A stretch of 64,000 nucleotides of DNA from a virus (IMGVR_UViG_3300025519_000001:64001-128000), one strand, 5' to 3'. Shown: positions 196 to 19,429, numbered from the stretch's first letter. Notes: generated by a model not told the origin, from the letters alone. Translations and numbers: made by a program.

Positions 196-271
196 TTTAA
201 TGATTTTGGGTGGGTTGGTGGGAATATTGAAAAAAGGAGGATAGAAAATAAAAAAATAAAAATAAAAGGGG

Positions 272-2717: not shown

Positions 2718-2740
2718 ATAAATAGAAAGAGGGATATAGT

Positions 2741-3703
2741 TTGACAACATTTTCAGCAGTAAATTGGAATACACCAGATGATGATTTTACACAAATGTTT
2801 TGGCAACAAAATATTATGCAGTTTTGGACTGATGAAGAAATTCCACTATCTGATGACAAGATGACGTGGATCGATCTTACTAAAGCTGAACAAGAGGTAT
2901 ATAAGCGAGTATTGGGAGGACTTACGCTTCTTGATACAATTCAAGGCGGAGTGGGTATGCCCAAAATCCTTGAGCATATTGATGGCCTCCAGCGCAAAGC
3001 AGTTTTAGGCTTTATGGGGATGATGGAGCAGATTCACGCCAAATCATATAGTAGTATTTTCACTACATTGGCAACCAAAGAAGAGATCGACGAGATTTTT
3101 GATTGGGTTCATCAAAATAAATATTTGCAAAACAAAGCTAAAATTATTGCGGACTACTATACGAACATTCGCACAAAAAGAGATGTCTATATGGCATTAT
3201 GTGCGTCAGTTCTTTTGGAGAGTTACTTGTTTTATAGTGGATTTTTCTATCCTCTATATCTTTCTGGACAAGGTAAAATGACAAATAGTGGCGAAATAAT
3301 TGATCTAATCTTACGTGATGAAAGCATTCATGGTGTGTATGTTGGTTTACTAGCACAAGAAATTTTTCAATCATTCAACAAACGCACCCAAGAAAGATTA
3401 AAAGTAGAATTATTTGAATTAGTTGATGAATTATATAGCAACGAAATTTTATATACAGATGAATTATACGAGCCTATTGGACTTCAAGAAGAAGTAAAAA
3501 AATATGTAAGATATAATGCTAACAAGGCATTACAAAATCTTGGGTTTGAAAGTTACTTTCCAGAAGAAACAATTAATCCAATTGTTCTAAATGGAATCAA
3601 TACAAACACAAAAAACCATGACTTCTTCTCGAAGAAAGGGAATGGATATGTCCGTAGCACAAACGTAGAAAAAATGCGTGACGAGGATTTCATTTTTGAT
3701 TGA
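2741..3703 (+). CDS. nrdF: Class Ib ribonucleotide reductase beta subunit
   Basis: LTLLDT, MEQIHAKSY, RDESIHG metal ligands; HDFFS..GNGY tail. Confidence 0.97.
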   Translation: MTTFSAVNWNTPDDDFTQMFWQQNIMQFWTDEEIPLSDDKMTWIDLTKAEQEVYKRVLGGLTLLDTIQGGVGMPKILEHIDGLQRKAVLGFMGMMEQIHAKSYSSIFTTLATKEEIDEIFDWVHQNKYLQNKAKIIADYYTNIRTKRDVYMALCASVLLESYLFYSGFFYPLYLSGQGKMTNSGEIIDLILRDESIHGVYVGLLAQEIFQSFNKRTQERLKVELFELVDELYSNEILYTDELYEPIGLQEEVKKYVRYNANKALQNLGFESYFPEETINPIVLNGINTNTKNHDFFSKKGNGYVRSTNVEKMRDEDFIFD

Positions 3704-3774
3704 ACATCGAAAAAGATTAAAAATGTAATTGCCAAAACTTTTAACTAAAAAATAAAAAAGGGAGAATGTAGTAT

Positions 3775-4470
3775 ATGAAATTTAAAATCAATCAAAAAGT
3801 ATTCTATACATCTGTAAAAGTGCCAGCAGTAATTAAAGGATTCGAAAAGAACAAGGTATTTATTACATATTTCCCAAAAGGCGAAACAAAACGCACGAAT
3901 AAACTCGTGGAACCTTCGAAATTGAAACCATATCGTAAAATTAAAAATAATTCAAATCGTTATTATTATGCAGTACGTAAATTTCATACCGCATTTAAAC
4001 ATCCAAAATCAAACAAGCCGACGCCAATGGATGCTAATATGGCGATTAAACGAATGTCTTGGACACTTGAAGAAATTGTTGAATTTATCCACGCTTCTTC
4101 CGAATCTAAAGAACAATTTTCAACTTTATTTGAACAATTAATTGTTAATGGACAAAAAACTTATGAAAAATTGCTAAACACACCTTTGCCTGAAAGCGCA
4201 GAGGATAGGCTATTAGCACAAGTAGATGCAGTAGGAGATATTTTGTATTTCAATCAAGGTGACTTTAACATCCTTGGAGTAAAGCCAGATAGAATTTTTG
4301 AAGCGATTCAAGCGGCAAACATGAGAAAGCTTCATGAAGATGGTAAACCAAGATTCCGAGAAGGGGACGGAAAGATCATTAAGCCGGAAGAATGGTATGG
4401 CCCCGAAAAAGATATTCAAAAAGAAATTGAAAGACAAGCTAATGCAGTAAACAAAACTAAAAAGTCTTAA
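3775..4470 (+). CDS. MazG-like/all-alpha NTP pyrophosphatase with an extra N-terminal domain
   Basis: LEEIVE, QVDAVGDILYF, ANMRKL..DGKP.FREGDGKIIKP motifs. Confidence 0.75.
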   Translation: MKFKINQKVFYTSVKVPAVIKGFEKNKVFITYFPKGETKRTNKLVEPSKLKPYRKIKNNSNRYYYAVRKFHTAFKHPKSNKPTPMDANMAIKRMSWTLEEIVEFIHASSESKEQFSTLFEQLIVNGQKTYEKLLNTPLPESAEDRLLAQVDAVGDILYFNQGDFNILGVKPDRIFEAIQAANMRKLHEDGKPRFREGDGKIIKPEEWYGPEKDIQKEIERQANAVNKTKKS

Positions 4471-4480
4471 AAACAAAAAG

Positions 4481-4507
4481 AGGAGCGTAGTTTAATTCTA
4501 CGCTCCT
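4481..4507. terminator. Hairpin terminator between convergent genes
   Basis: aggagcgtag-tttaatt-ctacgctcct, a perfect 10-bp stem. Confidence 0.75.
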
Positions 4508-4512
4508 TGAAA

Positions 4513-4791
4513 TTACGATTCGGCAGTAGCAGCAGCTTCTTGTTGAACTTCAGATTTAGGCTTTCTACCGGGTTTCTTGGTATAATTTCTCTTTTGTGGT
4601 ATGTTAGTAAAGTGTTCTTCAAACATCTTAAGAACGTTTCGATAAACGGCTACGCTAATAGTACGAACGACTGGAGTGGATTCTGGGTTGATAGATTTCT
4701 CAAATTCAATACCTTGTTCTTCGTGCGCTATTAAAGCGTTAAGTTTATCTTGAAAGTCTTTGATTATTTTTTCATCAAAAATTTTTGCCAT
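4513..4791 (-). CDS. Small hypothetical protein with a basic KPGRKPK motif
   Basis: 92 aa ORF with RBS (aaggaagtg) and upstream TGnTATAAT on the - strand. Confidence 0.7.
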   Translation of the reverse strand: MAKIFDEKIIKDFQDKLNALIAHEEQGIEFEKSINPESTPVVRTISVAVYRNVLKMFEEHFTNIPQKRNYTKKPGRKPKSEVQQEAAATAES

Positions 4792-4856
4792 TTAATTCAC
4801 TTCCTTGTCTTTATAAGAATTTAAATTCATTATATCATAAAATTTAGGAGAAAAAA

Positions 4857-5642
4857 ATGAATCAAGCAGATAAACAATATTTAGATATTGTAAAAGATAT
4901 TCTTGAGAATGGATATTACGACAATAATCGCACAGGAATTCCGACAAAAAAATTGTTTGGAAAACTATTTCGTTTTGATTTACAAAAAGAATTTCCGATT
5001 CTAACTACGAAATTTGTACCATTTAAAACGCTCGTAAAAGAATTGTTCTGGATTTATGTAATGCAAAGCAATGATGTCCGTGAACTACAAAAAATGGGTG
5101 TTACAGTATGGGATGAATGGATGCAAAATGATGGAACAATCGGAAAAGCTTATGGTTATCAAATAGCAAAATATAAGCAAATAGACAAGTTGATTGAAGG
5201 TTTAAAAAATGATCCTCAATCACGAAGGCACATCATGACTCTTTGGAATTTAGATGACCTTGAAGATATGGCCTTACAACCATGTGCTTTTCAAACCATG
5301 TGGGATGTATCCAATGGTTATCTCAATTGCACTTTAATTCAAAGATCGGGTGATATGGGCTTGGGCGTGCCATTTAATACAGCACAGTATGCTGTACTTG
5401 TACATATGATTGCACAAGTAACCGGATTAAAAGTAGGAGTGTTCAATCACTATATTAATAACGCACATCTTTACGAAAATCATTGGGAGCAAATTAAAAA
5501 ACAATTAGAAAGAGAGCCATTTCCCTCTCCTAAATTGTGGATTAATCCTGAAATTAAAAACTTTTATGATTTTACTATTGATGACATTAAGCTTATCGAT
5601 TATCAGCACCATCCTAAAATTGAGATGGAGGTAGCTGTTTGA
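4857..5642 (+). CDS. thyA: Thymidylate synthase
   Basis: [40 protein letters not shown]. Confidence 0.97.
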
Positions 5643-6145
5643 TTTCTATTATTGTAGCGATGGATCGAAATAAATTAATTGGAAACAATGGGCAACTTCC
5701 ATGGCACATTCCAGCCGACTTAAAGTATTTTAAAGAGAAAACTAAAAATAAAATAATTGTTATGGGAAGAAAAACTTATGAGTCAATTAGAAGACCATTG
5801 CCTAATAGAGTCAATGTGGTTATCTCAAAAAATATCGAATTCATAATTAAAAATAAGGATAAGGGGTTATTCGTTTATGATTCAATTGACCAATTTCTAA
5901 AAAGCAATATACATAAAGATCGAGAAGTATATGTGATTGGTGGAGCAAGAATCTACGCTCAATTCTTACAAATAGCTGATAAGCTATTGATTACTCATAT
6001 TGATTACGAGTTTAAGGGGAATACTTACTTCCCTAATTATGATGAGAATGACTTCTCTATTACTTCGTCCATAAAAATAGGCGCAAGCGAAAATGATTCA
6101 AAATACAATCTTACTTTCGCGGAGTACAGCAGAATAAAAAAATAA
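5639..6145 (+). CDS. dfrA: Dihydrofolate reductase
   Basis: [40 protein letters not shown]; overlaps the thyA stop. Confidence 0.96.
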
Positions 6146-6159
6146 AATATAAAAAACAC

Positions 6160-6188
6160 TTGCACAAAAAATAGATTCATGCTAAAAT
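6160..6188 (+). promoter_or_regulatory. Sigma-A type promoter for the accessory gene patch
   Basis: TTGCAC-17 bp-TAAAAT with an extended TG. Confidence 0.65.
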
Positions 6189-6255
6189 CAATCCTGTCAA
6201 GAACGATACCAAATTGTTCCGACAGGATTTTCTTGTAGTAAGGAGGGAGAATAAT

Positions 6256-6801
6256 ATGTATCAAGCATATGTGGACGCTTCTTTCACACCTCGAAGTTCG
6301 GGATTTGGTTATGCGGTTTTTAAAGACGATATTCTTTTACATATACATAGAGAAAATAGAGTGTCAGTGGATTGCAATTCATTAGAGTACATAGCGGTTT
6401 TGGAACTCATGAAATATATTAATAGAATAAAAATAAATAATGTAACTGTGTTCACAGATAGTTTAAATTTAGTGAGCGAACTAAGAGCTAAAAGAAGAAT
6501 TAGAAATCCAATAATAAATGAAATTTTGTATGAACTCTCGCTTAATCCTACTGTTAAAGTTAAATGGATAGACCGGAGATTGAATGTATTTGCGCATAGT
6601 CTTAGTCAAAATGCTCGAACCATGAATTATAATTTTAGTGATAATATTAAAAAACAACGAAGGCTGCTGAAAACCTGTAAAATATGTAAAGAAAGAAAAC
6701 CAGTCACCCAATTTCCTTCAAATCAACGAAAATGCATTGATTGCTTATCCAAAGTAACTGCGATTAATAGCTCATACTTAAAAACAAAATTACATAAATG
6801 A
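6256..6801 (+). CDS. RNase HI-like protein with a C-terminal CxxC..CxxC zinc finger
   Basis: YVDAS, NSLEY, FTDS acidic residues; CKIC...CIDC; ATG at 6256 follows aggaggg. Confidence 0.75.
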   Translation: MYQAYVDASFTPRSSGFGYAVFKDDILLHIHRENRVSVDCNSLEYIAVLELMKYINRIKINNVTVFTDSLNLVSELRAKRRIRNPIINEILYELSLNPTVKVKWIDRRLNVFAHSLSQNARTMNYNFSDNIKKQRRLLKTCKICKERKPVTQFPSNQRKCIDCLSKVTAINSSYLKTKLHK

Positions 6802-6802
6802 G

Positions 6803-6994
6803 GTGAAAAATTTTATGAGAAAAAAAGATGAGCGGCTTAGTTATTTAGAAATTAATCATTTTTATTTCAATCGCGTCTTAGAGCCAAACGACAACTATTA
6901 CAATAAAAGAGTCGAGAAAGTATTGTTTCCCTATGACTTAGAAATGGCGCAACTTAAATGGGAATTAAAAAATAAAAAAAAGGAGATACACTAA
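6803..6994 (+). CDS. Hypothetical protein
   Basis: 63 aa ORF in the operon. Confidence 0.55.
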   Translation: MKNFMRKKDERLSYLEINHFYFNRVLEPNDNYYNKRVEKVLFPYDLEMAQLKWELKNKKKEIH

Positions 6995-7225
6995 ATGAAT
7001 TATTCTAAAGAAACACTTAAGCTAATAAGTCTTTGCTGGAGTGGTGACGAACCAAGGAACACTAATGTAATCATTGGAACAACGTATTTCGATTTAGAAG
7101 GCAATAAATATAAAATAACGGAAGATACATATAAAGAATTGGTTCGGTATCAAAGCGAATCTTCAAGAAAATTCAAGATTATTCGAAATGGAAACGTCTT
7201 GTGGCTTCAAGGAATGGGTGCATGA
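6995..7225 (+). CDS. Hypothetical protein
   Basis: 76 aa ORF with an aaggag RBS. Confidence 0.65.
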   Translation: MNYSKETLKLISLCWSGDEPRNTNVIIGTTYFDLEGNKYKITEDTYKELVRYQSESSRKFKIIRNGNVLWLQGMGA

Positions 7226-7239
7226 AACCATGATTTTGT
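7222..7239. repeat. ATGAAA-N6-TTTCAT dyad, degenerate copy
   Basis: (gtgc)atgaaa-ccatga-ttttgt, overlapping a stop codon. Confidence 0.5.
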
Positions 7240-7255
7240 GAGGTGTTAAAAACTA

Positions 7256-7918
7256 ATGGCAAAGAAAAAATATAGAATACAAAAGGCTCGAATTAAGGAA
7301 GCAGGGAAACTTCTTTCTATTATAACTGGAATTAATTTTGGAATCAGTGGTAGTAGTTATAAAAATGGCATATGGTATTGTAATTTTTATGCTGAACTAG
7401 ATGTTCCACATTGGTTTGATACAACTATTCGTGATACAGCAGAAGAAGAAATAAGGCCATATATTGAAAGGCAATACAAGAAAATTATTGATGCACTCAA
7501 AAGTAAATTTGGAGAAATCGAACATTCTCCATCAGAACATTGGTACAATTTCACTTATTATCTTCCTCCAGAAGGTGTTGCTCAACCTGAAATTTGGGAT
7601 CATGTTAATGGGGTTTTTCAAAAAATAAAAGATGCAAGACTACTAACAGAAAAAGAAATAGAAGAAAATTTGAAGCGATGGGAAGAAATTTGTCAAGATG
7701 AACCAAACAATAGATATTCTTTATTCCATTTAGAACATTTAAGATGGAGTAAAGATAACTGGAAAAAATATTTTAAGTTTGTTGGTGGTTCACCATTTAC
7801 AGATGAATTATTTGTTCAAATTCGTTATGGCGACATGATTAGAATGCGAGGAGAATTTTCGTTTAAAGCTTTTGGTGAATTTGATCTGTTGAAAGAAGAA
7901 TATATGTATTATATTTAA
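7256..7918 (+). CDS. Hypothetical protein
   Basis: 220 aa ORF with a gaggtg RBS. Confidence 0.75.
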   Translation: MAKKKYRIQKARIKEAGKLLSIITGINFGISGSSYKNGIWYCNFYAELDVPHWFDTTIRDTAEEEIRPYIERQYKKIIDALKSKFGEIEHSPSEHWYNFTYYLPPEGVAQPEIWDHVNGVFQKIKDARLLTEKEIEENLKRWEEICQDEPNNRYSLFHLEHLRWSKDNWKKYFKFVGGSPFTDELFVQIRYGDMIRMRGEFSFKAFGEFDLLKEEYMYYI

Positions 7919-7968
7919 AAATAAAAAAGGGGATTGTATTTCAATTAATAAAAGGAGTAATATTTAAG

Positions 7969-8310
7969 ATGTATTTCTACGAAAAGGAATTAGCGCGAAT
8001 TAAAAATGATTGGGAGAAAACACACCCTGAACGAGTAAAAATATTCTCTCAACAATATTTAGAAAATGGCTTTTCAGATGAAGACACGTGGAATTTAGAT
8101 ATTCATCTTGCAAAACTAATTTACCCTAGACTCGTTCGATTTAAAGAAATAGCTTGTGTTGTTATAGACTGGCCTTTGAATGAGATTATAGAAGCATTTA
8201 GATTAATTGTTGATGAAAATGTAGATTTCTTTAACGAACCCGAAAATTACGAAAAAATAAAGAAAGGACTTAAATTATTTGCAGAGTATTATTTTAAATT
8301 GTGGTGGTGA
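7969..8310 (+). CDS. Hypothetical phage protein
   Basis: 113 aa ORF with RBS; ends LFAEYYFKLWW. Confidence 0.75.
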   Translation: MYFYEKELARIKNDWEKTHPERVKIFSQQYLENGFSDEDTWNLDIHLAKLIYPRLVRFKEIACVVIDWPLNEIIEAFRLIVDENVDFFNEPENYEKIKKGLKLFAEYYFKLWW

Positions 8311-8360
8311 TATAAAAAAGTATAGCTAAAAAGGGATGTAATTTAAAATTAAAATTCACC

Positions 8361-8378
8361 ATAAAAGACACGTTTCAT
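8361..8378. repeat. ATGAAA-N6-TTTCAT dyad at the left border of the CRISPR cassette
   Basis: ataaaa-gacacg-tttcat. Confidence 0.6.
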
Positions 8379-8400
8379 ATGCTAATATTCAAACTTTAAA

Positions 8401-8443
8401 GTGCGAATCCCAAGCGAACATAAAAACTCTAGGAGATTCGCAC
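8401..8443 (+). promoter_or_regulatory. CRISPR leader inverted-repeat motif, type I-C-like (copy 1)
   Basis: gtgcgaatc-N25-gattcgcac; near-identical copy at 10500-10542. Confidence 0.7.
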
Positions 8444-8452
8444 CAAATTTAC

Positions 8453-8622
8453 AGGGCGACTCGGCGTCCAAAATCGAGAAAGCATGTGAATTTACATATG
8501 ATTTACCTATTTCACATGCACTCGATAACGTATCTATATTTTAAAATGTGCTTATAGATACGACCATTCTCGTTTTTATAGGAGAATGCACTTTGTGCGA
8601 ATAAATATGCACACTTTTTGCT
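8453..8622 (+). ncRNA. Cas12f tracrRNA (copy 1)
   Basis: gggcg-actcgg-cgtcc hairpin, atcgag..ctcgat stem, two more stems, anti-repeat cactttgtgcgaat (8589-8602); architecture matches my recollection of the As/OsCas12f1 tracrRNAs. Confidence 0.8.
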
Positions 8623-8835
8623 GTTGCAATTCGCACATGCACATAAAGTGTGAGAAGGGAGACTAAGGCTAAAGTCTTTGCTAGGCTAGTTGCAATTCGC
8701 ACATGCACATAAAGTGTGAGAATGGGAGAATGTAGATCGTGACTCTGCCTTATAGTTGCAATTCGCACATGCACATAAAGTGTGAGCTAGATCGACTATA
8801 TATGCGGAGCTTAAAAATTATTGCAATTCGCACAT
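8623..8835 (+). CRISPR. CRISPR mini-array: 3 identical 32-nt repeats, a degenerate 4th, and 3 spacers (34, 34, 33 nt)
   Basis: GTTGCAATTCGCACATGCACATAAAGTGTGAG at 8623-8654, 8689-8720 and 8755-8786; partial repeat at 8820-8835. Confidence 0.95.
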
Positions 8836-8850
8836 ATATAATGTTAAAAT
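8821..8850 (+). promoter_or_regulatory. Putative cas12f promoter overlapping the terminal repeat
   Basis: TTGCAA-18 bp-TAAAAT with an extended TG; RBS gagggg follows, then ATG at 8868. Confidence 0.5.
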
Positions 8851-8867
8851 AATGAGGGGTTTTATAT

Positions 8868-10478
8868 ATGCCTAAAAAAGAAAAAGATGATAATAAGATT
8901 GTGAAAATTGTAAAAGTAGAGATTGATAGGATTGTTGGAATAAAAGAAGATCATTTTAATGTTATAGCAAAAAAACTTCAAAGCGAATCTCTTGATATGC
9001 GAAATCAATTTATCGCAGAGTTATGGAAGTGGAATAATTTTGAAGATGACTATAAAACAAGATACTACTCTAATCCAGATACAAAGGAATATTTATTTAA
9101 TAAAAAGAAAGGGAGTCCATATGGATCAATAAGGGGGTATGCTGAGGACGTAGTGAAAGAAAATAAAATATCGTATTCTGGTATAATTAGTGCAAACACA
9201 AATAAAGCTCTTAGTAGATGGAATAAATTCTTAAAAGATCGCGAAAACTATAGAGAAGGAAAATATCCAGCAATACCATGTTTTACAAGACCAGAAATTC
9301 TATTTCGTGCTTCTGATACAGAGATAATTAAGAAAGATGCAAAATATGAATGCAAATTACCTTTACTTGGTAGAGATGGAGTTAAAATTGCTGATCTTCT
9401 AGTTAAAAAATATGAAGAAGAAAAACGCACTGAAAAACTAAGAAGAGAAGAATTAAAAAAAGAATATAAGAATCTTGAAGAAAAAGGCGTAGAAATAACC
9501 AAAGAAATTAAAGATAAACTGTGGATTAAAGTTAAAAATAAAATTAAAGAAAAGAGTGAAGAAGAACTTAAAAATGATGAACCGATTATCACCTCTAGTA
9601 GCTATCAAGCTATTTTGAAACTATCTGATACATATGATAATACAACAATCATAAACAGAATTATTAATGGCGAATATAAAATGGGTGAAAGCAGTTTACG
9701 AAAATTAAAAAACAAATGGATACTATTTATCACATACAGTTTTGAAAAGCAGTCAAAGGGGCTTGATCCAAATATAATTTTGGGTGTAGATATAGGAGTT
9801 AATGATCCAGCACATATGATAGTTTATGATTCCAATAATAAAAAATGGGGGAAAAAGAAATGGATTGATGGTAAAGAAATCGAAGCGTTTCGTAAGAAAC
9901 GTGATGTTATGAAGAGATCAATACAAAAACAAGCTGCTTATTGTGGAGAAGGAAGAAGAGGACATGGGAGGAAAACAAGAATGAATGCGGTTGAAAAGAT
10001 TGATGGAATGATTAAGAGATTTAAAAATACATGCAACCATAAATATTCTAGATTTATTGTTGATTTTGCTTTAAAAAACAATTGTGGAGTAATTCAGATG
10101 GAAAACTTATCAGGAATTGCTGATGGAGAAAAGAAAGCAACATTCTTGGGTGATTGGACTTTTTATGATTTGCAACAAAAAATAAAATATAAAGCTGATG
10201 AAGTTGGAATTAAAGTTATATTTATTAAACCAAATCACACGTCTGCAAGGTGTAGTAATTGTGGTTTCATTCATGATAATAAATTAAAAGATATTTGGAG
10301 ACCAGAAACAAAACAATTCAAATGTATGAAGTGTGACTATGGACATAGGCGATTTGTCCACGCAGATGATAATGCAGCTAGGAATATTTCGCTTCCAGAT
10401 ATCGAAAATATTATCGAAGAACAACTAGACCTCCAAAACAAAGAAGCAAAACATGCATTAAAGTATATTGCAGAATAA
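8868..10478 (+). CDS. cas12f: Type V-F Cas12f1 (AsCas12f1-like, TnpB-derived) RNA-guided nuclease, 536 aa
   Basis: RuvC-I GVDIG (D308), RuvC-II QMENL (E412), CSNC..CMKC zinc finger, RuvC-III HADDNAARNI (D500), GRRGHGR and WTFYDLQQKIKYKA blocks; adjacent to array and tracrRNA. Confidence 0.9.
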   Translation: MPKKEKDDNKIVKIVKVEIDRIVGIKEDHFNVIAKKLQSESLDMRNQFIAELWKWNNFEDDYKTRYYSNPDTKEYLFNKKKGSPYGSIRGYAEDVVKENKISYSGIISANTNKALSRWNKFLKDRENYREGKYPAIPCFTRPEILFRASDTEIIKKDAKYECKLPLLGRDGVKIADLLVKKYEEEKRTEKLRREELKKEYKNLEEKGVEITKEIKDKLWIKVKNKIKEKSEEELKNDEPIITSSSYQAILKLSDTYDNTTIINRIINGEYKMGESSLRKLKNKWILFITYSFEKQSKGLDPNIILGVDIGVNDPAHMIVYDSNNKKWGKKKWIDGKEIEAFRKKRDVMKRSIQKQAAYCGEGRRGHGRKTRMNAVEKIDGMIKRFKNTCNHKYSRFIVDFALKNNCGVIQMENLSGIADGEKKATFLGDWTFYDLQQKIKYKADEVGIKVIFIKPNHTSARCSNCGFIHDNKLKDIWRPETKQFKCMKCDYGHRRFVHADDNAARNISLPDIENIIEEQLDLQNKEAKHALKYIAE

Positions 10479-10499
10479 ACTTTTTATACATTCTCTCTG

Positions 10500-10542
10500 G
10501 TGCGAATCCCAAGTTCACATAAAATCCCTAGAAGATTCGCAC
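10500..10542 (+). promoter_or_regulatory. CRISPR leader inverted-repeat motif, type I-C-like (copy 2)
   Basis: gtgcgaatcccaagttcacataaaatccctagaagattcgcac. Confidence 0.7.
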
Positions 10543-10558
10543 TTCTAATAAACATTAA

Positions 10559-10811
10559 GGGGCGACTCGGTAGAATGGAACATCTTAGTCAGTCATCCGT
10601 CCTAAATCGAGATAGTGCGGTTATACATATTTAACTTAACCGTTCACACTCGATAAGGTATCCCGAAAGGGTGAAACCCTACTCACAAAATCCGAGTAGG
10701 CACTTCATACAGAATATTTATGTATATTTATTCACACTTTCCGCAGTTGCAATTTATATGTACGTATGAAGTGTGAGAAAATACTAGATTAAGTCTTGTT
10801 ATGAAATTAGC
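10559..10811 (+). ncRNA. Second tracrRNA fused to a single variant repeat (10746-10777) and flanking guide (natural sgRNA/omegaRNA-like)
   Basis: Same stems as copy 1; anti-repeat cacttcatac (10701-10710) is perfectly complementary to gtatgaagtg in the variant repeat GTTGCAATTTATATGTACGTATGAAGTGTGAG. Confidence 0.8.
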
Positions 10812-10953
10812 TAAAGATATTACTTCGGCTCTGATTGAGCGATTCCCCCTAGAGTATGAAAAAGAAAATATTAAAATAAAAAATATTAAAGATAAAGATT
10901 TGGTTAAACGAATTAAAAAGAAAGGGTTAAGCGTAGAGTTGATCACAAAATAA
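10777..10953 (+). pseudogene. 5'-truncated ORF remnant or small ORF (..MKLAKDITSALIERFPLEYEKE..ELITK*)
   Basis: Open frame starts at the repeat 3' end; the ATG at 10801 has no RBS. Confidence 0.45.
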
Positions 10954-10956
10954 AAC

Positions 10957-10974
10957 ATGAAAGATGCATTTCAT
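10957..10974. repeat. ATGAAA-N6-TTTCAT dyad at the right border of the CRISPR cassette
   Basis: atgaaa-gatgca-tttcat. Confidence 0.65.
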
Positions 10975-11070
10975 TAAATGATGTGATGAAGCTTGAGAAT
11001 AAAAGTTATTGTTACAATTGAACTATTAAAATAAAAAATATCAAGATAATTCGAGAGGAGTATAAACAAA

Positions 11071-11244
11071 ATGGATAAATACTCTCACTTAGACAAGGAA
11101 TATCTCGAATACTTAAAGGAGGGCTACTCTCAAAGATACATAGATCCAGACGATCCTTGGTTTACGGACTATGAACTTGAAGATAAGTACCTAGACGGAT
11201 ATGGCTTTGAAAATAAAAATAAAATAATACATAAAGGAGAGTAA
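11071..11244 (+). CDS. Small acidic hypothetical protein (57 aa, not in the ORF track)
   Basis: gaggag RBS; MDKYSHLDKEYLEYLKEGY...HKGE*. Confidence 0.6.
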   Translation: MDKYSHLDKEYLEYLKEGYSQRYIDPDDPWFTDYELEDKYLDGYGFENKNKIIHKGE

Positions 11245-11250
11245 AATAAA

Positions 11251-11645
11251 ATGGATTTGGGGTTAAAAAAGGCGGAAGACACGAACGCTGGATTTCGTTT
11301 GCCCTAAAAAAAGCAAAATACAGTAAAGTTCCACACTACAAACACTGTGCTGTTGTAATCAAGGGTGGAAGGCCAATTAGTATAGGAATTAATAAAACAA
11401 AAGCGGGATGTCTGGGAGATCCAATTTATTCTTTCCGCCAATGGCACAGTGAATTTGATGCCCTTTGTAACCTTGATGAGTCTCAAATTAAAAATGCTAT
11501 CTTGTATGTCGCAGGATGGACAAAGGGAGGTAATATTGCAAAATCCAAGCCATGCCCTCATTGTCAGGAGTATTTAAAAAAATTACCGTTAAAATCTATC
11601 GTATATTCAATGCCAGATGGAAGCTATGAAGAAATGGTTATATAA
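11251..11645 (+). CDS. Cytidine/dCMP deaminase-family zinc protein that needs a -1 frameshift (or a frameshifted pseudogene)
   Basis: Frame 11250-11645 encodes WHSEFDA and SKPCPHC (HxE/PCxxC) but has no start codon near its 5' end; ATG at 11251 with a strong RBS reaches it via A AAA AAG (11265-11271). Confidence 0.75.
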
Positions 11646-11664
11646 ATATTTTGGGGTGAAATTC

Positions 11665-11970
11665 ATGAACGACAAAAAAAGACTAGAGTCAATTATTAAA
11701 GCAATAGACGCAATTGGTAAAGATACACTTATTCCAAGACAACATGAACAATTATTTGGAATCCTATTAGCGCAACATATGATTTCCAATGGCTTTCCCG
11801 AAGAAGTTGTTGATCCTGACTTGCTAATGTTATCTATTCGTGATGCTTATCATGAATATAATTGGATAAAAGAAAAGATTAAAAACCCAACAATTGAGAA
11901 TGTATTTACTCCAAAATACATTGAAGAATTAAAGAAAAAAGGTTGGATTTATGAACCAAATAAAGATTGA
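11665..11970 (+). CDS. Hypothetical protein
   Basis: ORF 11617-11970; likely start ATG 11665 after ggggtg. Confidence 0.7.
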   Translation: MNDKKRLESIIKAIDAIGKDTLIPRQHEQLFGILLAQHMISNGFPEEVVDPDLLMLSIRDAYHEYNWIKEKIKNPTIENVFTPKYIEELKKKGWIYEPNKD

Positions 11971-12369
11971 GTGGATTATTCCTACGAAATTGCGATTTTA
12001 TTGGAGGTGTTTAAAGTGAATTTGTGGTTTACAGCAAATGATTATTATGGTCAAGAAGTCAATTTTACATTTGATGATATTAATTGTGTATATAAAAACG
12101 ACGGAATTATGTATGTTGGAAATCCAATTCCTATTCCAATTTTGATGAATACAATAAAATTAAAAAATTATGAAGCAAATAAATTAAATGAATTCACTTT
12201 TCGTTTTTATGATGGAGTCAACTATAAACAAGGAGTATGCAAAAATATAGTTGCAGTTGATTTACTACAGGCTAAAGACTTTGCATATCAAATTGTTGAA
12301 TTATTAGGTTCGTTGAATAGTAGTGATTGGGACAAAGATACAATTCGATATGAATATATAAGCCAATGA
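11971..12369 (+). CDS. Hypothetical protein
   Basis: 132 aa ORF; the true start may be the GTG after the internal ggaggtg. Confidence 0.65.
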   Translation: MDYSYEIAILLEVFKVNLWFTANDYYGQEVNFTFDDINCVYKNDGIMYVGNPIPIPILMNTIKLKNYEANKLNEFTFRFYDGVNYKQGVCKNIVAVDLLQAKDFAYQIVELLGSLNSSDWDKDTIRYEYISQ

Positions 12370-12383
12370 AATCATCATTTCAT
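12366..12383. repeat. ATGAAA-N6-TTTCAT dyad
   Basis: atgaaa-tcatca-tttcat, overlapping a stop codon. Confidence 0.65.
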
Positions 12384-12406
12384 AAGAAAGAGAGGAAGCA
12401 TTTTAT

Positions 12407-14593
12407 ATGAGGTTGCTTGTTGTAACAAGAGGGGCAATGGGAGCAGGAAAATCTACTTGGATTAAAAATGCTGGTCTTGAACAATATACAATATCTCCAG
12501 ACCAAATTAGACTAATGATTCAAACTCCCGTAATGAATGAGACTGGTGGATTTTCAATTAGTGTAAAAAATGAAAAACGTGTATGGAATCTCTTATTTGA
12601 AGTATTAGAAGATCGTATGAAACGTGGAGAGTTTACTGTTATCGATGCAACCCACTCAAAAACTGAAGACTTTAAGAAATATAAAAAATTACTTGAGAAA
12701 TATCGTTACAGAATGATATGCGTTGATTTTACTGATGTTCCAATTGAAAAAGCAAAAGAACAAAATAGAAATAGAGAAAGTTATAAATTTGTTCCCGAAG
12801 ATCGTATTGATAATTTGTATGAAAGATTTAAAACACAAGAAGTACCTAATTGGGTCAAAGTTATCAAACCAAGCGAGTATGAAGAAGCAGTAAAATATAC
12901 CCCAAGAGATTTATCTTCATATAAAAAAATACATCACATCGGAGATATTCATGGTTGCTACGAGCCACTTCTTGAATATTTTAAAAGTGGACTTAAAGAT
13001 GATGAATTTTACATTTTCACAGGAGATTACATTGATAGAGGCATCCAAAACGCAGAAGTATTGAATTGGTTATTCTCTATTAAAGATAGGGATAATGTAA
13101 TTCTACTTGAAGGCAATCATGAAAAATGGTTATGGTATTGGGCCAACGAAGAACAAGAAAATATTCGAAGCCGAGAATTTAAAAATATTACACAAAAAGA
13201 ACTTGAACAAAAAGGAGTTGATAAAAAAGAAACTAGACAACTATATAGAAAACTACATCAAATTGTTTACTATACATACGGAAATAAGCAAGTTATTGTA
13301 ACTCATGGTGGCATTACAACAATGCCTGAAAACTTACTTTATATTGCGACCAACCAATTTATTGATGGTGTAGGAAGTTATGAATTAGATGTTGACAGAG
13401 TTTTCTTTGACAATACAGGCGATAATATTTTTCAAATTCATGGTCATAGAAACATTCAAAGGTTTCCAGTTCAAGTTAATGAAAGATGTTTTAACCTTGA
13501 AGGACAGATTGAACATGGAGAATATCTTAGAATTGTTACCCTAGATGAAGATGGATTTAAAACAAATGAGATTAAAAACAATGTATTCTCTAATCGCTTT
13601 ACAGCCGTTAATGAAAGTAATTCAACAAACGAAGCTATTTTAAAATTAAAAAATGATAAAACAATTATCGAGAAAAATCTTGGAGATGGAATTGTTTCAT
13701 TTAATTTTTCTTCCAATACTTTCAAGAAAGGAAAATGGAACAAAAACAACTTACAAGCTCGTGGCTTATTCGTAAATCTTGATACAGAAGAAATCGTGGC
13801 AAGAAGTTATAATAAATTTTTTAATGTTAATGAACGATATGAAACTAAAATAGATACACTAGGAAGAAATCTAAAATACCCTGTTGACATTTATCTAAAA
13901 GAAAATGGTTTTCTTGGTTTGGTAGGATATAACTCAGTAAATGATGAAGTTGTATTTTGTTCTAAATCTACAACAAAAAGCGATTTTGCGGGCTGGTTAA
14001 AAGAAATCTTCATTGATTCAATCACATTCAACAATATTGATCTTGATACAATTAAAACATATTTAAAAGATAATAATTGTACTTTGGTTTTTGAAGTAAT
14101 TGACCCTCAAAACGATCCTCATATTATTGAGTATCAGAATAGAGAAATTGTTCTACTTGATATTGTGAAAAGGACATTTGATTTTCAAAAAGAACCATAT
14201 GAAACTGTTCAGAATATAGCACAACAATTTGGCTTTAAATGCAAAGAAAAAGTTACTTCTTTTACTAACTGGAATGAATTTTACAACTGGTACACAAATA
14301 TTAAAGAAAATAAAAAATTGAAAATTGAGGGGTATGTTCTAGAAGATGCTTCTGGATTTATGACAAAAATTAAACTCCCCTATTATGGTTTTTGGAAACA
14401 TATGAGAAAGATCAAAGAAATTCTATCAAAGAAAAATCCAGTGTTCGACAAAAAAATTCTTTTTAGTAAATCAATGAATGAAGTGTATAATTGGATGATT
14501 ACTAAAGATAAAGATTATCTTCAAAAATCAAGTATTATTCAATTAAGAAATGATTTTTACAAAGAAGTTAAAAATCCTGATTTTGAATATTGA
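12407..14593 (+). CDS. Polynucleotide kinase / metallophosphoesterase / T4 Rnl1-like RNA ligase fusion
   Basis: GAMGAGKST P-loop; GDIHG, GDYIDRG, GNHE phosphoesterase motifs; ARSYNKFFN, KENG and EGYV ligase motifs. Confidence 0.88.
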   Translation: MRLLVVTRGAMGAGKSTWIKNAGLEQYTISPDQIRLMIQTPVMNETGGFSISVKNEKRVWNLLFEVLEDRMKRGEFTVIDATHSKTEDFKKYKKLLEKYRYRMICVDFTDVPIEKAKEQNRNRESYKFVPEDRIDNLYERFKTQEVPNWVKVIKPSEYEEAVKYTPRDLSSYKKIHHIGDIHGCYEPLLEYFKSGLKDDEFYIFTGDYIDRGIQNAEVLNWLFSIKDRDNVILLEGNHEKWLWYWANEEQENIRSREFKNITQKELEQKGVDKKETRQLYRKLHQIVYYTYGNKQVIVTHGGITTMPENLLYIATNQFIDGVGSYELDVDRVFFDNTGDNIFQIHGHRNIQRFPVQVNERCFNLEGQIEHGEYLRIVTLDEDGFKTNEIKNNVFSNRFTAVNESNSTNEAILKLKNDKTIIEKNLGDGIVSFNFSSNTFKKGKWNKNNLQARGLFVNLDTEEIVARSYNKFFNVNERYETKIDTLGRNLKYPVDIYLKENGFLGLVGYNSVNDEVVFCSKSTTKSDFAGWLKEIFIDSITFNNIDLDTIKTYLKDNNCTLVFEVIDPQNDPHIIEYQNREIVLLDIVKRTFDFQKEPYETVQNIAQQFGFKCKEKVTSFTNWNEFYNWYTNIKENKKLKIEGYVLEDASGFMTKIKLPYYGFWKHMRKIKEILSKKNPVFDKKILFSKSMNEVYNWMITKDKDYLQKSSIIQLRNDFYKEVKNPDFEY

Positions 14594-14725
14594 TATCATA
14601 ATGAAGTTGAAAGGATAAAAAAATAAAATATATGGATATTATTATGGAATTATGTGCTTAAAAATATTGTTTACTGCGAAAAAGTAGATACAGGCAGACT
14701 TTTAATGGAGGTGTAAAGATCTACA

Positions 14726-15112
14726 TTGAATCACAAAACAAAGGGAACGCATATTATTGCGGATTTGTATGGTATTAAAAAAGAACTTCTCGACGATATA
14801 TCGCTTCTTTCGTTATTAGGGAGAACAGCAATTGCAATCTCAGGAGCAAAATTAGTTGATTGGACATTTAAAAAATTTCAGCCTAGCGGGGTTACGCTTC
14901 TCTTTCTTTTAGAAGAATCGCATTTATCATTTCATACATATCCAGATAGCGAACCAGAAAATTCTACAGGTTTTCTTGCCTTAGATATATATTGCTGTGG
15001 TGATGCCGATCCCAATGTTGCTGTTGATTTTATTATTGACAACCTTAAACCAGACCCAAGTAGAGTATATCGGCAGATGTTTATTAGGGGCGTTGAACAA
15101 GTAAGGAGGTAA
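14726..15112 (+). CDS. speD: S-adenosylmethionine decarboxylase proenzyme
   Basis: GTHIIADLYG, FQPSGVT, LLEESHLSFHTYP (E-S self-cleavage site), DIYCCG. Confidence 0.9.
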   Translation: MNHKTKGTHIIADLYGIKKELLDDISLLSLLGRTAIAISGAKLVDWTFKKFQPSGVTLLFLLEESHLSFHTYPDSEPENSTGFLALDIYCCGDADPNVAVDFIIDNLKPDPSRVYRQMFIRGVEQVRR

Positions 15113-15117
15113 TAAAA

Positions 15118-18100
15118 ATAGGACGCTTTTCAAGTTTGCATAATCACAGCTATTATTCACTTCTCGATGCCGTAATGTCACCAGAAGAATTAGTTAAACA
15201 AGCTTATGATCTAGGCTTTAATGCTATCGCCTTGACGGAACATGGAAACATGCATAGCTTCATCGAAGGCTATAAAGCAGCACAAAAATTAGGAATAAAA
15301 TTTATTCCCGGTTGCGAAGTATACGAAACAACCGATATGGACTACAAAGAGAAGGATGCTGACCGCTACCATCTTATTCTTCTTGCAAAATCAGAAAAAG
15401 GTTTAAAAAATCTTTTTCAAATTGTTACCGCAGGAGCAACAAGGGGATTCTATGGAAAACCACGAGTAGACTTAAATTTGATGAGTCAGTATTCAGAAGA
15501 TATTATTTGTATGACGGCCTGCCTCGGGAGCAGAATTGACCGTTTACTTTATGGTGGACGATGCTCATGTTGTAATGACAATCACGATAAAGAATGTAAG
15601 AATTTTGAGCCAAAATGGGACTTAGCAAAAGAGTGGGTAAAAAAATACAAAGATGTTTTTGGAGGCAACTTTTATATTGAACTTCAATCACATGATACCG
15701 AAGCATCATATATTGCCAACCAGCGATTATTAAAATTAGCACAAGAAACAAATACAAAATATACGATCACATTTGATACGCATTTACGAGATGGATCTGA
15801 ATTACAAAAAGATATTCATCGTAAATTCATCCAAATCTCGCAAGATAGAGAAGTTGGAGAAACATATGAAGGATGTTGGCAAACAGACATTGAAACAATA
15901 CATAAAGTAATGGATAAACAAATTGGATATGATGCAGTTGAGCTTGGAATCGAGTATACAGATGAAGTTGCTGCTCAATGTAATGTTGAAATTAAATTAA
16001 AACAAGACTTGATGCCAAAAATCAAAATTCCTAAAGGGTTTAAAACTGAACAAGATTATCTTAAACATCTAATTCTTCAAGGTTGGAAAAAACGTGGAAT
16101 TGATAAATTCCCTCCAGAAAAGAAAAAAATTTATAAAGAGCGTATAGAGCGAGAATTTGAAGTTCTTGATTATTTGGGATATTGTAGTTATTTTATTATG
16201 CTTTATCAACTTATTAATAAAATGCGTGAGCGAAAAATTCCACTAGGATATAGTCGTGGTAGTGGAGGTAACTGTTTAACCTTATATGTTTTAGGTGTAA
16301 CGGAAGTTGATAGTATTAGATGGGGACTCGACTTTTCTCGTTTTGCCAACAAAGGACGCCGCGGTTCACCAGCCGACTACGACATAGATATCAGTCAGCT
16401 TCGCAGACAAGAAGCGTTAGAAATTGCAGCAGAACTCTTTGAGCAAGAAAGTATTGCTCAAGTGGCTACATTTAACTCAATGTCACCAAAAGTTTGCATT
16501 CGTGATTTGGGTAAAATTTTTGACGAAGAGGGGATTTATAAAATTCCATATGAGTTAAGAGATAAGATTGCAAAATTAATTCCAGATGACGCACAAGAGA
16601 AAATGACCATCGAAAGAGCCTTGGAAAAATCTGAAGAACTGCAATCTTATCAAAAAAAATTTCCATTACTATTCGAATATACAAAATACCTACAGAACTT
16701 GCCTAAGTCAGTAGGATGCCATGCTTCAGCAGTAATTATTGCACCAAGCCCTATCATTGAATTTGCACCTTTAATGCTAAATAAAAATGGAAACTTAATG
16801 ATGCAAATTGAAATGCATAATGCAATGGATGACATTGGGCTTGTTAAAATGGACTTTCTAGGACTTGTAACGGTTGACGTTGTAGATCAGGCATTAAAAC
16901 TTGCTGGCCTTGACTGGGACGATATTAGCTTATCGAAAATTAATCTTGATGACAAAAATGTGTTTGCAGAAATATATGCAAAAGGGAATACGCTTGGTGT
17001 TTTCCAAATGGAAGCTTATGTGGCACAAGAAATGTTCAAAAAAATGAATGCAGATACGATAGAAGATGTATTTGCTGTTAATGCAATGAATCGTCCTGCT
17101 ATTCTTTCTGTAGGAATGGATAAAGTATATATTCACAACAAGAAAAACCCTCAAGATGCAAAGTATATCCACGAAGATTTAAGGAATATTTTTGAACCAA
17201 CAAATGGAATTATGCTTTATCAAGAACAAGCCTTAAAAGTTTTCGCATTGGCTGGCTTTGACGAGAGTGAACAGGATAATGCGAGACGTGCTATTGGTAA
17301 AAAAATAAAAGAAGTAATGTTATCACTTTATGATAAATTTGAAAATGGTTTACTGAAAAGAAACTGGACAAAAGAACAAATTAAAGAATTGTGGGATTTG
17401 GTTGAAGCGCAAAGTACCTATTCTTTTAATTCGGGGCATAGTACAGCTTATGGTCTTCTATCATATGTTACTGCTTGGCTTAAATACTATTATCCTGTTG
17501 AATTTATGACAGCACTTTTAACTTCCGAAATCGGTAATTATCAACAAACATCAAAATACATTGCTGAATGTAAAAGAATGGGCATTAATGTTGTTGCACC
17601 TGATATTAATAAATCTGGTCGTTTATACACCATTCACGATGGAAAAATTATATTTGGATTAGAGTCACTTAAAGGTGTTGGAGAAAAAGCAGTTGAAGAA
17701 ATTCTTACAGAGAGAGAAAAGGGTAAGTTTACTTCATTAGAAAATTTTCTAGATCGTTGTAAGCTAGATTCTTCGACAGTAATTGCACTTATTAAATCTG
17801 GCTGCTTTGGCCCAAATAAAGATGAATTATTATTAGAATATGCCAAGAAAAATTTTTCATCAAGTGTATATAAGCCAGTAAGTTCTTTGCCATCAAAGAA
17901 AGTTTTGTATGAATTGAAAATTATTTCTTCTGATGAAGAATTTAAAAACAAAGAAGAATGTCTATCTAAATATAATCAATATAGGCAAAACAAATTCTTA
18001 GAAGAACAAAAACAAAAAGAAGAAAGATATTTGAATGAATTTAAAGAAAAGTATATGGATGCTCCAGAAATGTACGAATATGAAACTTTGTCCATCTTTA

Positions 18101-18426
18101 TCAATGGAAATCCATTTGAAAACGTAAAACATTATTTTAAACCATTTGATGATTATGAAGACGGAAAAGACTGTTATCCTATTGGAACAATTACGTCAGT
18201 TAAAAGAAAGAAGCAAAAGAATGGATTAACAATGGCTTATATCGAACTATTAACTCCTGACAAAATGATCGAAGGAATGGTATTTGCCAAACAATACGCA
18301 GAATATCAAGACATTCTTAAAAAAGGCTCTAATATCGTCGTAAAAGCAAAAAAGAGTGGAGAACAATTTATTGTAGACAAAATTAAAACACTAGAATACT
18401 GGAAAAATGAAAGAGGGATTAAGTGA
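15118..18426 (+). CDS. dnaE: DNA polymerase III alpha subunit (DnaE type)
   Basis: PHP LHNHSYYSLLDA and ALTEHG; SRGSGG; ADYDIDIS; KMDFLGL; C-terminal OB fold; the ORF track start is 15136, but RBS spacing favours ATA at 15118. Confidence 0.95.
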   Translation: MGRFSSLHNHSYYSLLDAVMSPEELVKQAYDLGFNAIALTEHGNMHSFIEGYKAAQKLGIKFIPGCEVYETTDMDYKEKDADRYHLILLAKSEKGLKNLFQIVTAGATRGFYGKPRVDLNLMSQYSEDIICMTACLGSRIDRLLYGGRCSCCNDNHDKECKNFEPKWDLAKEWVKKYKDVFGGNFYIELQSHDTEASYIANQRLLKLAQETNTKYTITFDTHLRDGSELQKDIHRKFIQISQDREVGETYEGCWQTDIETIHKVMDKQIGYDAVELGIEYTDEVAAQCNVEIKLKQDLMPKIKIPKGFKTEQDYLKHLILQGWKKRGIDKFPPEKKKIYKERIEREFEVLDYLGYCSYFIMLYQLINKMRERKIPLGYSRGSGGNCLTLYVLGVTEVDSIRWGLDFSRFANKGRRGSPADYDIDISQLRRQEALEIAAELFEQESIAQVATFNSMSPKVCIRDLGKIFDEEGIYKIPYELRDKIAKLIPDDAQEKMTIERALEKSEELQSYQKKFPLLFEYTKYLQNLPKSVGCHASAVIIAPSPIIEFAPLMLNKNGNLMMQIEMHNAMDDIGLVKMDFLGLVTVDVVDQALKLAGLDWDDISLSKINLDDKNVFAEIYAKGNTLGVFQMEAYVAQEMFKKMNADTIEDVFAVNAMNRPAILSVGMDKVYIHNKKNPQDAKYIHEDLRNIFEPTNGIMLYQEQALKVFALAGFDESEQDNARRAIGKKIKEVMLSLYDKFENGLLKRNWTKEQIKELWDLVEAQSTYSFNSGHSTAYGLLSYVTAWLKYYYPVEFMTALLTSEIGNYQQTSKYIAECKRMGINVVAPDINKSGRLYTIHDGKIIFGLESLKGVGEKAVEEILTEREKGKFTSLENFLDRCKLDSSTVIALIKSGCFGPNKDELLLEYAKKNFSSSVYKPVSSLPSKKVLYELKIISSDEEFKNKEECLSKYNQYRQNKFLEEQKQKEERYLNEFKEKYMDAPEMYEYETLSIFINGNPFENVKHYFKPFDDYEDGKDCYPIGTITSVKRKKQKNGLTMAYIELLTPDKMIEGMVFAKQYAEYQDILKKGSNIVVKAKKSGEQFIVDKIKTLEYWKNERGIK

Positions 18427-18669
18427 ATGAACAAAAAACCATTGAAAAATAAGCGTATCTATCTCACCATCATGGACGAAAATGGCGATGAAATCACTCT
18501 TTCATTCAGATCAAAAAAATCCTTAAACGAGTATATCAATCAAAGTAATTATCCTGTAATAAAAATTGATAATAAACGCCCCAAACCTGATTTAGCACAT
18601 ATTTCAAAAAAGGAAATAGAAGGATTGGAAAAGTTAGTGGCTACTTTAAATCCTAATTATGATAAATAA
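18427..18669 (+). CDS. Hypothetical protein
   Basis: 80 aa ORF directly after the dnaE stop. Confidence 0.65.
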   Translation: MNKKPLKNKRIYLTIMDENGDEITLSFRSKKSLNEYINQSNYPVIKIDNKRPKPDLAHISKKEIEGLEKLVATLNPNYDK

Positions 18670-18685
18670 AAAAAGGAGGATATAC

Positions 18686-19358: not shown

Positions 19359-19372
19359 TGAAAATAAAAATT

Positions 19373-19410: not shown

Positions 19411-19429
19411 CATGGAGGACTGATAAAAT

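Follow-up and report, generated by a model that had tools for sequence, protein, structure and literature searches.

The 64,000-nucleotide stretch analysed here (IMGVR_UViG_3300025519_000001:64001-128000; hereafter the window) corresponds to bases 64001-128000 of a 154,759-bp phage and carries a short dyad, ATGAAA-N6-TTTCAT, that recurs at the junctions of accessory genes. Positions are given in window coordinates unless marked as genome. Exact copies begin at 10957, 12366, 18488, 36433, 51369, and 59453, six occurrences where dinucleotide-preserving shuffles led us to expect 0.03. The hexamers ATGAAA and TTTCAT occur 46 and 57 times in the window, respectively, so that ~0.04 pairs would be expected at any one spacing; across spacings of 0-40, exact pairs were found at a spacing of 6 and at no other. 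The whole phage contains 16 exact copies against 0.19 expected, with 0-1 matches at each of the other spacings of 0-29, and one-mismatch copies number 28 at spacing 6 versus 1-6 at spacings 4, 5, 7, and 8. The dyad thereby shares with dif-type sites the arrangement of two inverted arms around a fixed centre of 6-8 bp. A working consensus, ATRAAA-N6-TTTYAT, has 40 copies in the whole phage. Lying far above the shuffled background, the dyad is a genuine element, although the coordinates given for it in a preliminary description of this DNA needed correction. Among the six sites listed there, those at 10957, 12366, and 51369 are exact, the one at 8361 has one mismatch, the one at 7222 is a weaker copy, and 36428 marks the start of a copy with 11-bp arms whose 6-bp arms begin at 36433; two exact dyads, at 18488 and 59453, had been overlooked, as had the junction copy at 11984.

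Dyads and their cargo in the window

The leftmost site (7222-7239; ATGAAA-CCATGA-TTTTGT) is degenerate; its left arm supplies the TGA stop of an open reading frame (ORF) at 6995-7225, and the next ORF runs from 7256. The dyad at 8361-8378 (ATAAAA-GACACG-TTTCAT) lies just 5' of the first scaffold-RNA copy of a Cas12f module, and the one at 10957-10974 (ATGAAA-GATGCA-TTTCAT) occupies a gene junction. At 11984-12001, a one-mismatch copy (ACGAAA-TTGCGA-TTTTAT) follows a stop at 11970 and is itself followed by GGAGG and a GTG start. The dyad at 12366-12383 (ATGAAA-TCATCA-TTTCAT) overlaps the TGA of ORF 11971-12369 and is positioned 23 nt 5' of a Pnkp/RNA-ligase gene, and that at 18488-18505 (ATGAAA-TCACTC-TTTCAT) lies 62 nt past the stop of a YorL-like DNA polymerase gene, inside an 80-aa ORF that begins at that stop. 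In the tail-gene region, beside a terminator-like hairpin, the copy at 36428-36455 (ATGAAA-TTACAC-TTTCAT) is extended by AGTGC on the left and GCACT on the right, giving arms of 11 bp. The dyad at 51369-51386 (ATGAAA-TTTATA-TTTCAT) is found downstream of a YomM-like recombinase operon and has an SPbeta counterpart at yomL/yomM (39885). The last, at 59453-59470 (ATGAAA-TGACAG-TTTCAT) in the structural region, falls within the final 16 codons of an ORF in the tail region and precedes the start of the minus-strand ORF 58925-59404 by 48 nt. The dyads had been described as uniformly intergenic or stop-overlapping, which is true of most but not of 18488 and 59453. Likewise, the 11-6-11 architecture attributed to them belongs to the single site at 36428-36455; across sites, no conservation was detected beyond the 6-bp arms, where information content falls to background.

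Between the dyads at 8361 and 10957, the Cas12f cargo (8386-10800, plus strand) consists of a non-coding scaffold-RNA copy of ~250 nt (8386-8600), a mini CRISPR array with 3-4 repeat-spacer units of period 66 (~8622-8835), a Cas12f/TnpB-like gene encoding 536 aa (8868-10478, plus strand), and a second non-coding scaffold copy, also ~250 nt, with a single degenerate repeat (10485-10779). The interval had been equated exactly with the CRISPR-Cas12f module; gene, array, and both scaffolds are indeed there, together with one 49-aa ORF. No viral relative of the Cas12f-like protein was found. The layout, with scaffold copies flanking the gene, looks intermediate between TnpB omega-RNA and CRISPR. 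DNA of this phage was found in bioreactor metagenomes, and contigs of four other bioreactor runs were compared with window positions 1-20000. All four runs hold a variant in which 8574 is joined to 10753, so that 8575-10752 is missing and the Cas12f-like gene, the mini array, and one scaffold copy are lost (the two scaffold copies are ~78% identical); because of this joined form, we conclude that the module is polymorphic in the population. Contigs of three runs also diverge in both directions at 10778-10779, the end of the degenerate repeat that closes scaffold copy 2. Since this is where a guide or spacer would begin, the divergence may reflect guide polymorphism.

Placement of the dyads follows a recurrent pattern in the phage as a whole. 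Of the 40 consensus copies, 36 lie within long plus-strand arrays of small genes, with an upstream stop codon placed −6 to +12 relative to where the motif begins (in some cases supplied by TGA or TAA within the left arm), a ribosome-binding site directly 3', and the next start codon at +8 to +35 from the dyad; elsewhere this last distance ranges from −2 to +35. Dyads were found in both gene orientations. A by-product of stop and start codons was rejected as an explanation, as the TGA or TAA of the arm serves as a stop in only about one-fifth of the copies, and a translation signal was rejected because the distance from dyad to start is too variable. In a relative with 47% GC (L019; G004:C1:29206-32250), seven dyads read ATGAAA-[purine-rich centre]-TTTTATG; here the stop codon TGA comes from the left arm, the centre acts as ribosome-binding site, and the start codon ATG shares bases with the right arm. 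Immediately past this cluster, at 32542-33081, is an ORF for a tyrosine-recombinase-like protein of 272 aa.

The two arms vary independently of each other. At the variable arm positions of the 40 copies, the combinations G/C, A/C, G/T, and A/T occur 16, 8, 12, and 4 times, compared with 16.8, 7.2, 11.2, and 4.8 predicted by independence. Seven of the eight remaining single-mismatch copies disrupt a potential base pair, and the hairpin that 6-bp arms could form as RNA has a mean energy of −1.4 kcal/mol (range, −3.4 to +0.4). Because the half-sites degenerate independently and the hairpin is marginal, these patterns suggest that the dyad represents two half-sites for two protein subunits on duplex DNA rather than a fold. 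No −35/−10 elements are conserved in the flanks, and a promoter and terminator scan of 6-20 kb gave no match at the dyads 8361, 10957, 12366, and 18488. A sigma-70 promoter, operator, or terminator at the dyads was rejected on these grounds.

Family distribution, exchange points, and conserved centres

By gene content and order, the phage is of the SPbeta type, and the dyad recurs in its relatives. SPbeta itself has 14 matches to ATRAAA-N6-TTTYAT, 13 of which read ATAAAA-N6-TTTTAT; the latter form is 41-fold enriched, at spacing 6 only, and often sits at junctions of stop codon and ribosome-binding site. In relatives of 35-50% GC, strict copies number 7-16 apiece (reversed-pattern control, 0-1), as compared with 0-1 dyads at each of 35 unrelated loci (~600 kb) bearing the same ligase gene. 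As judged from these sequence comparisons, the dyad is a trait of the SPbeta-like family. Our literature search found no published description of it.

One repeated intergenic element of this family is already known. SPBRE, the 15-bp operator of the SPbeta master repressor MrpR, was located by ChAP-seq at ~10 promoters (PMC10516654), and like the dyad it is an element of the same phage family, bound in its case by a protein of tyrosine-recombinase fold with a homologue encoded here. Nine of the ten published target regions yielded the SPBRE core, AATATGTATA; the SPbeta dyads lie at other positions and have another sequence, and identity of the dyad with the SPBRE/MrpR operator was therefore rejected. 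The target of the related phi3T SroF is an asymmetric box of 26 bp, to which the protein binds as a monomer (bioRxiv 10.1101/2025.11.27.690993). At several SPbeta dyads (NC_001884, positions 113663, 132746, and 111028), a AAAAATAAAAT tract very similar to the phi3T SroF box (reverse complement GAATAAAAATAAAATTA) occurs ~6-12 nt 3' of the motif, and in some lineages a linkage of dyads to repressor boxes is possible. A promoter for YonO was also rejected, as YonO initiates a single late operon, upstream of yonK (PMC5467207).

Mosaic breakpoints in the SPbeta group concentrate at the dyads. Megablast blocks were compared across the 25-kb early region of SPbeta, phi3T, Goe11, Goe12, and Goe13, and many of them have their start 0-10 nt ahead of a dyad or their end 0-6 nt beyond one; the block shared by phi3T (8355-8836) and Goe13 (7026-7507) has both edges exactly at dyads. 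When block ends are counted separately for each genome (217 in all), 40 are no more than 12 nt from a dyad edge, versus 3.5 for random positions (maximum 12 in 2000 trials). Since breakpoints might simply prefer gene junctions, a comparison among junctions provides the fairer null: breakpoints were borne by 39 of 54 junctions with a dyad (72%) and by 61 of 229 without (27%), corresponding to an odds ratio of 7.2 and a nominal P of 9e-10 that is inflated by counting the same junction in several related genomes. At orthologous dyads, the same dyad and centre can be joined to two or three unrelated left or right flanks, and arm variants accompany the neighbouring flank; the crossover therefore falls inside the 18 bp. 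Moreover, a 94% block shared by two IMG/VR relatives, L019 and L037, terminates at the last base of a dyad.

The same behaviour was observed inside the window. The nearest relative found, a 6143-bp Logan contig with a 98% polymerase match (L107), aligns to 12364-18506 and thus extends from dyad 12366 to dyad 18488 with a deviation of at most 2 bases at either end. In an 84% relative (L105), the polymerase gene is likewise followed by the centre TCACTC, and homology of that relative to the window stops 13 nt past dyad 18488; an 85% relative (L106) has the centre TTACTC, with homology stopping 8 nt past that dyad. Contigs of runs X2 and X4, which come from different studies, match through 10974, the last base of a dyad, and then continue into another ribosome-binding site and ATG. 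At dyad 12366, the first aligned base is 12364 for a contig of X2 (L107) and 12368 for one of X4. Contigs of other samples thus diverge exactly at the dyads 10957, 12366, and 18488.

We then turned to the centres. The relatives G002 and G003 are 71-72% identical to this phage (polymerase protein) and 77% identical to each other at the DNA level across the replication block. Twenty-two centres recur in both genomes with matching orientation, where 0.9 were expected and the reverse-complement control gave 0, and 21 of these are collinear. The arms of the shared-centre pairs are only 84.5% identical and differ even beside the centre; identity in the 100-nt flanks is no higher than background, apart from a single left flank (0.81) that adjoins the polymerase gene; the spacing of successive dyads is not preserved, and no tblastx similarity links the cargo of 13 of the 20 slots. 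Pairs had been chosen by identical centres, and near-matches were then sought in the collinear intervals, which yielded one centre matching at 5/6 positions and three at 4/6. Because neutral drift at ~80% identity per site would give more 5/6 than 6/6 matches, the centres are either kept exactly or absent. The preliminary description had noted that the cores vary, and they do so between the sites of one genome, but between orthologous sites they are strictly conserved. Self-complementary centres are also missing (0 of 283 in five genomes, with 5-6 expected; P ~0.0025), an avoidance of palindromes that fits an asymmetric centre setting orientation. On this evidence, the centres may serve as slot-specific, all-or-none addresses.

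A cassette-exchange model and its alternatives

Site-specific recombinases of the tyrosine family act on sites composed of arms and a central overlap that must match between partners. We propose that each dyad is a crossover joint whose arms bind protein and whose 6-bp overlap is specific to its slot, and that a phage tyrosine recombinase probably acts on it; to this reading we assign a probability of roughly 0.55. In such a system, the inverted arms (ATRAAA/TTTYAT) would dock two copies of one phage protein, and the 6-bp centre, specific to its genome position, would provide the address. Strand exchange across the centre would demand an identical centre in both partners, so that joint n of one phage would recombine only with joint n of a co-resident relative. 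The segment between joints, comprising a ribosome-binding site, one or a few genes, and a stop, would be replaced with gene order kept, and the differing centres within one genome would prevent deletions. We prefer site-specific recombination because it explains the symmetric arms, the strict 6-bp gap, the arms that move with their flanks, the fixed and slot-distinct centres, and the avoidance of palindromes. The motif, its placement, the exchange points, and the conservation of centres are what we observed; from them we infer the protein, the chemistry, and the timing of exchange. The broader proposal, that SPbeta-like phages run a natural recombinase-mediated cassette exchange in which a phage tyrosine recombinase acts on an ordered array of at least 40 heterospecific sites and co-resident relatives trade accessory genes in register, stands in our estimate at about an even chance.

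Several genes of the phage bear on this model. The YomM-like tyrosine recombinase (51869-52891, minus strand; 340 aa) has the R...HxxR...W...Y motifs, and a YopP-like tyrosine recombinase is encoded outside the window (genome 142729-143775), as are the terminase and a YonO RNA polymerase; either recombinase could be the enzyme that acts on the joints, and in this phage both proteins keep R, HxxR, W, and Y. Of the three tyrosine-recombinase-like genes, one belongs to the tail module and one to the lysogeny module, and the third is a neighbour of the YonO polymerase gene. A SprA-like large serine recombinase, the prophage integrase (19430-21022, plus strand), is not expected to act on the dyads. 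An MrpR/YopR/SroF homologue, a repressor of recombinase fold, is encoded 29.5 kb before the window (genome 34464-35453; L007:1135-2124) and matches PDB 8a0a over its full length (E 3e-34); it is preceded by a homologue of the ParB-like YopQ. The SPbeta-type content further includes replication genes, YotM, the tape measure, tail genes, and a Sak4-like (YorG) homologue, with NrdIEF at 272-3703 and the YorL-like DNA polymerase at 15136-18426. The gene at 12407-14593 encodes a 728-aa RNA repair enzyme in which polynucleotide kinase, calcineurin-type phosphatase, and T4-type RNA ligase are fused and which is 49% identical to its counterpart in SPbeta-type phages; relatives at 40-49% identity occur in SPbeta-type, Twort-like, and other Firmicute phages and in many gut Lachnospiraceae genomes. 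A search with the polymerase gene returned relatives at 71-98%, whereas the relatives recovered with the ligase gene in IMG/VR and GTDB genomes did not exceed 55% identity, and megablast against GenBank phages found no close relatives. The source names of the relatives suggest Paenibacillus and Brevibacillus hosts.

Several observations count against this cassette-exchange model. Besides the inflated P value of the junction comparison, many mosaic breakpoints of the SPbeta group lie at junctions without a dyad or inside genes, and further loose ends of the contigs were found at the dyad-less junctions 3765, 6999, 11074, and 14632 or within genes; dyads are therefore not the sole exchange points. 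The laboratory phi3Ts-SPbeta hybrids are explained by ordinary homologous recombination in kilobase-long identical tracts: in the 25-kb region examined of hybrid Hyb2, the two intervals in which parentage switches coincide with tracts of 1.4 kb and 4.9 kb that are identical in both parents and are therefore uninformative as to the use of a joint. Loss of the Cas12f module arises by recombination between the scaffold copies and not at dyads. With G001-G003, relatives at 70-77%, this phage shows no excess of shared centres (2, 0, and 0, versus ~1 expected), and the evidence for addresses in its own lineage is limited to one shared centre and the contig ends. As for the enzyme, alignment shows HxxK in place of HxxR in both YomM and YopP of SPbeta, which may accordingly be weakened enzymes and poor catalysts. 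The YomM-like and YopP-like proteins are candidates; the tentative assignment of the sites to the recombinase at 51869-52891 in the preliminary description is not supported. All five dyad-bearing relatives encode tyrosine-recombinase-like proteins; we rejected this co-occurrence as evidence, as nearly any temperate phage has them. Finally, the arms of tyrosine-recombinase sites usually measure 9-13 bp, against which the 6 bp conserved per dyad arm are short.

The dyads might instead be docking sites of a dimeric regulatory or DNA-organising phage protein, such as the ParB-like YopQ, with exchange as a side effect through Sak4/YorG or RecA; the annealing or homologous-recombination machinery of the phage would cross over at the dyads since neighbouring genes that are otherwise unrelated have no other sequence in common. 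Independent degeneracy of the half-sites suits any dimeric DNA binder, the dyads always lie upstream of a ribosome-binding site, and the phage encodes both YopQ and Sak4-like homologues. Regulatory repeats, the PeSLs, can drive module shuffling (PMC2839356), laboratory hybrids form through ordinary homologous recombination, and identity over 18 bp favours pairing of the same slots and would thus also keep centres. However, neither promoter nor terminator is present at the dyads, and the SPbeta master repressor binds another motif according to published ChAP-seq (PMC10516654). Homology should moreover keep arms and centre alike, yet the centres are all-or-none and the arms 84.5% identical; 18 bases with arm mismatches make a very poor substrate for homologous recombination, and the missing palindromic centres are not predicted. 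As the chief rival, this explanation would account for exchange at dyads, but we consider it less likely than crossover joints. A homodimeric phage endonuclease that reads the arms and cuts in N6, in the manner of restriction enzymes with interrupted palindromes, leaving slot-specific overhangs that rejoin only with matching ends, predicts the same signature as site-specific recombination, namely conserved arms, slot-specific centres, no palindromes, and sharp exchange points, and SPbeta-like phages encode several nucleases and ligases. No candidate enzyme was found for it, repeated double-strand cuts at ~40 of the phage's own sites would be hazardous, and we know of no precedent for cut-and-rejoin of this kind; we judge it improbable.

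Marginally less probable still is a pure operator or stoperator, at which a repressor would silence the early arrays and breakpoints would coincide with dyads merely through their shared gene junctions. A temperate phage with numerous sites scattered over its short intergenic gaps is what such a system would show, as with the stoperators of mycobacteriophage L5, and an MrpR/SroF homologue is encoded by the phage. Nevertheless, breakpoints are 2.7 times as frequent at dyad junctions as at others, centres are conserved even though their flanks are replaced, and the known relatives of that homologue have other targets, MrpR binding SPBRE and phi3T SroF acting as a monomer on its asymmetric box. 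The repressor operator that had been offered as the alternative reading is thus disfavoured, given that the dyad is distinct from the SPBRE/MrpR operator and that conserved centres go unexplained. The position of the dyad immediately 5' of Shine-Dalgarno sequences would also suit an RNA hairpin in polycistronic early transcripts, serving as a processing or translation-control signal at the ribosome-binding site. This we consider very improbable: the variable arm position shows no covariation, with an A-C mismatch in 8 of the 40 copies, other mismatched copies mostly break a pair, the hairpin reaches −3.4 kcal/mol at best, and the element occurs in both gene orientations. A structured RNA hairpin was rejected for its marginal stability and lack of compensatory change.

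Relation to known systems and significance

Among known systems, the dyads appear to work most like dif/pdif modules and engineered cassette exchange, and the system is not an integron, a PeSL, or SPBRE. The pdif sites of Acinetobacter plasmids, recombined by XerC/XerD (PMC6449649, PMC13141974), combine arms whose palindromic inner part is conserved with a 6-bp centre that varies (PMC6449649); they resemble the dyads in having inverted arms with a conserved inner part, in their many copies per replicon, and in bounding gene modules in varying combinations. In contrast, pdif sites are 28 bp long with distinct XerC and XerD arms and rely on host Xer, whereas the dyads are symmetric, with 6 bp conserved per arm, and reside on a phage that itself encodes the candidate enzymes. 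Arms of the dif type, ~11 bp with distinct XerC and XerD sides, were not found, 11-bp arms being present only at 36428-36455. The dyad does not resemble the Bacillus dif sequence. Furthermore, dif modules move between plasmids and change orientation, whereas the dyads stand in fixed order with slot-specific centres and exchange looks allelic.

In engineered heterospecific lox/FRT cassette exchange, sites have the same arms and different spacers; only same-spacer sites recombine, and the cassette is swapped in register. The logic proposed for the dyads is the same, but lox/FRT exchange was engineered in the laboratory around two sites whose arms are 13 bp long, as opposed to a putative natural array of at least 40 sites. 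The PeSLs of T4-type phages are short repeats between non-essential genes in plastic regions, and recombination at them shuffles modules (Arbiol et al. 2010, PMC2839356). They differ from the 18-bp dyads with position-specific centres in being units of promoter and terminator that recombine by homology and can form mini-circles; the sigma-70 early promoter and terminator stem-loop that mark a PeSL are absent from the dyads.

The preliminary description had called the system integron-like, and arrays of small accessory genes separated by tyrosine-recombinase sites are indeed a point of resemblance. Integron attC sites, however, are imperfect palindromes of 57-141 bp that recombine as folded single strands and travel with their cassette into attI, beside intI and a promoter. 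The 18-bp dyads have none of this attC structure: the R''-L''/L'-R' boxes and the one site per cassette were not found, and the centres belong to positions. Nor does an intI, attI, and Pc platform head the array, as the tyrosine-recombinase-like genes lie elsewhere and no promoter was found at the dyads. With no private site per cassette and with exchange that is allelic, slot by slot, the comparison with integrons does not stand. The other part of the preliminary claim, that the dyads are recombination sites dividing accessory genes into exchangeable units, is supported by breakpoints at dyads among related phages, ordered centres that are kept, and contigs that diverge at three dyads of the window.

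Phages already available for Bacillus subtilis allow a direct test of the model, which, if true, would supply ready-made orthogonal recombination sites for engineering. The traded cargo would then include defence and counter-defence genes and even the Cas12f module, explaining its spread. The modular theory of phage evolution proposed "linker" sequences between modules, and how gene order is retained amid free exchange has long been debated. The SPbeta family offers a concrete candidate for such a linker, in that the centres of the joints are kept in order while the intervening genes change. If an enzyme acts on these joints, they would provide programmed, in-register gene exchange and thus a dedicated mechanism for modular phage evolution.

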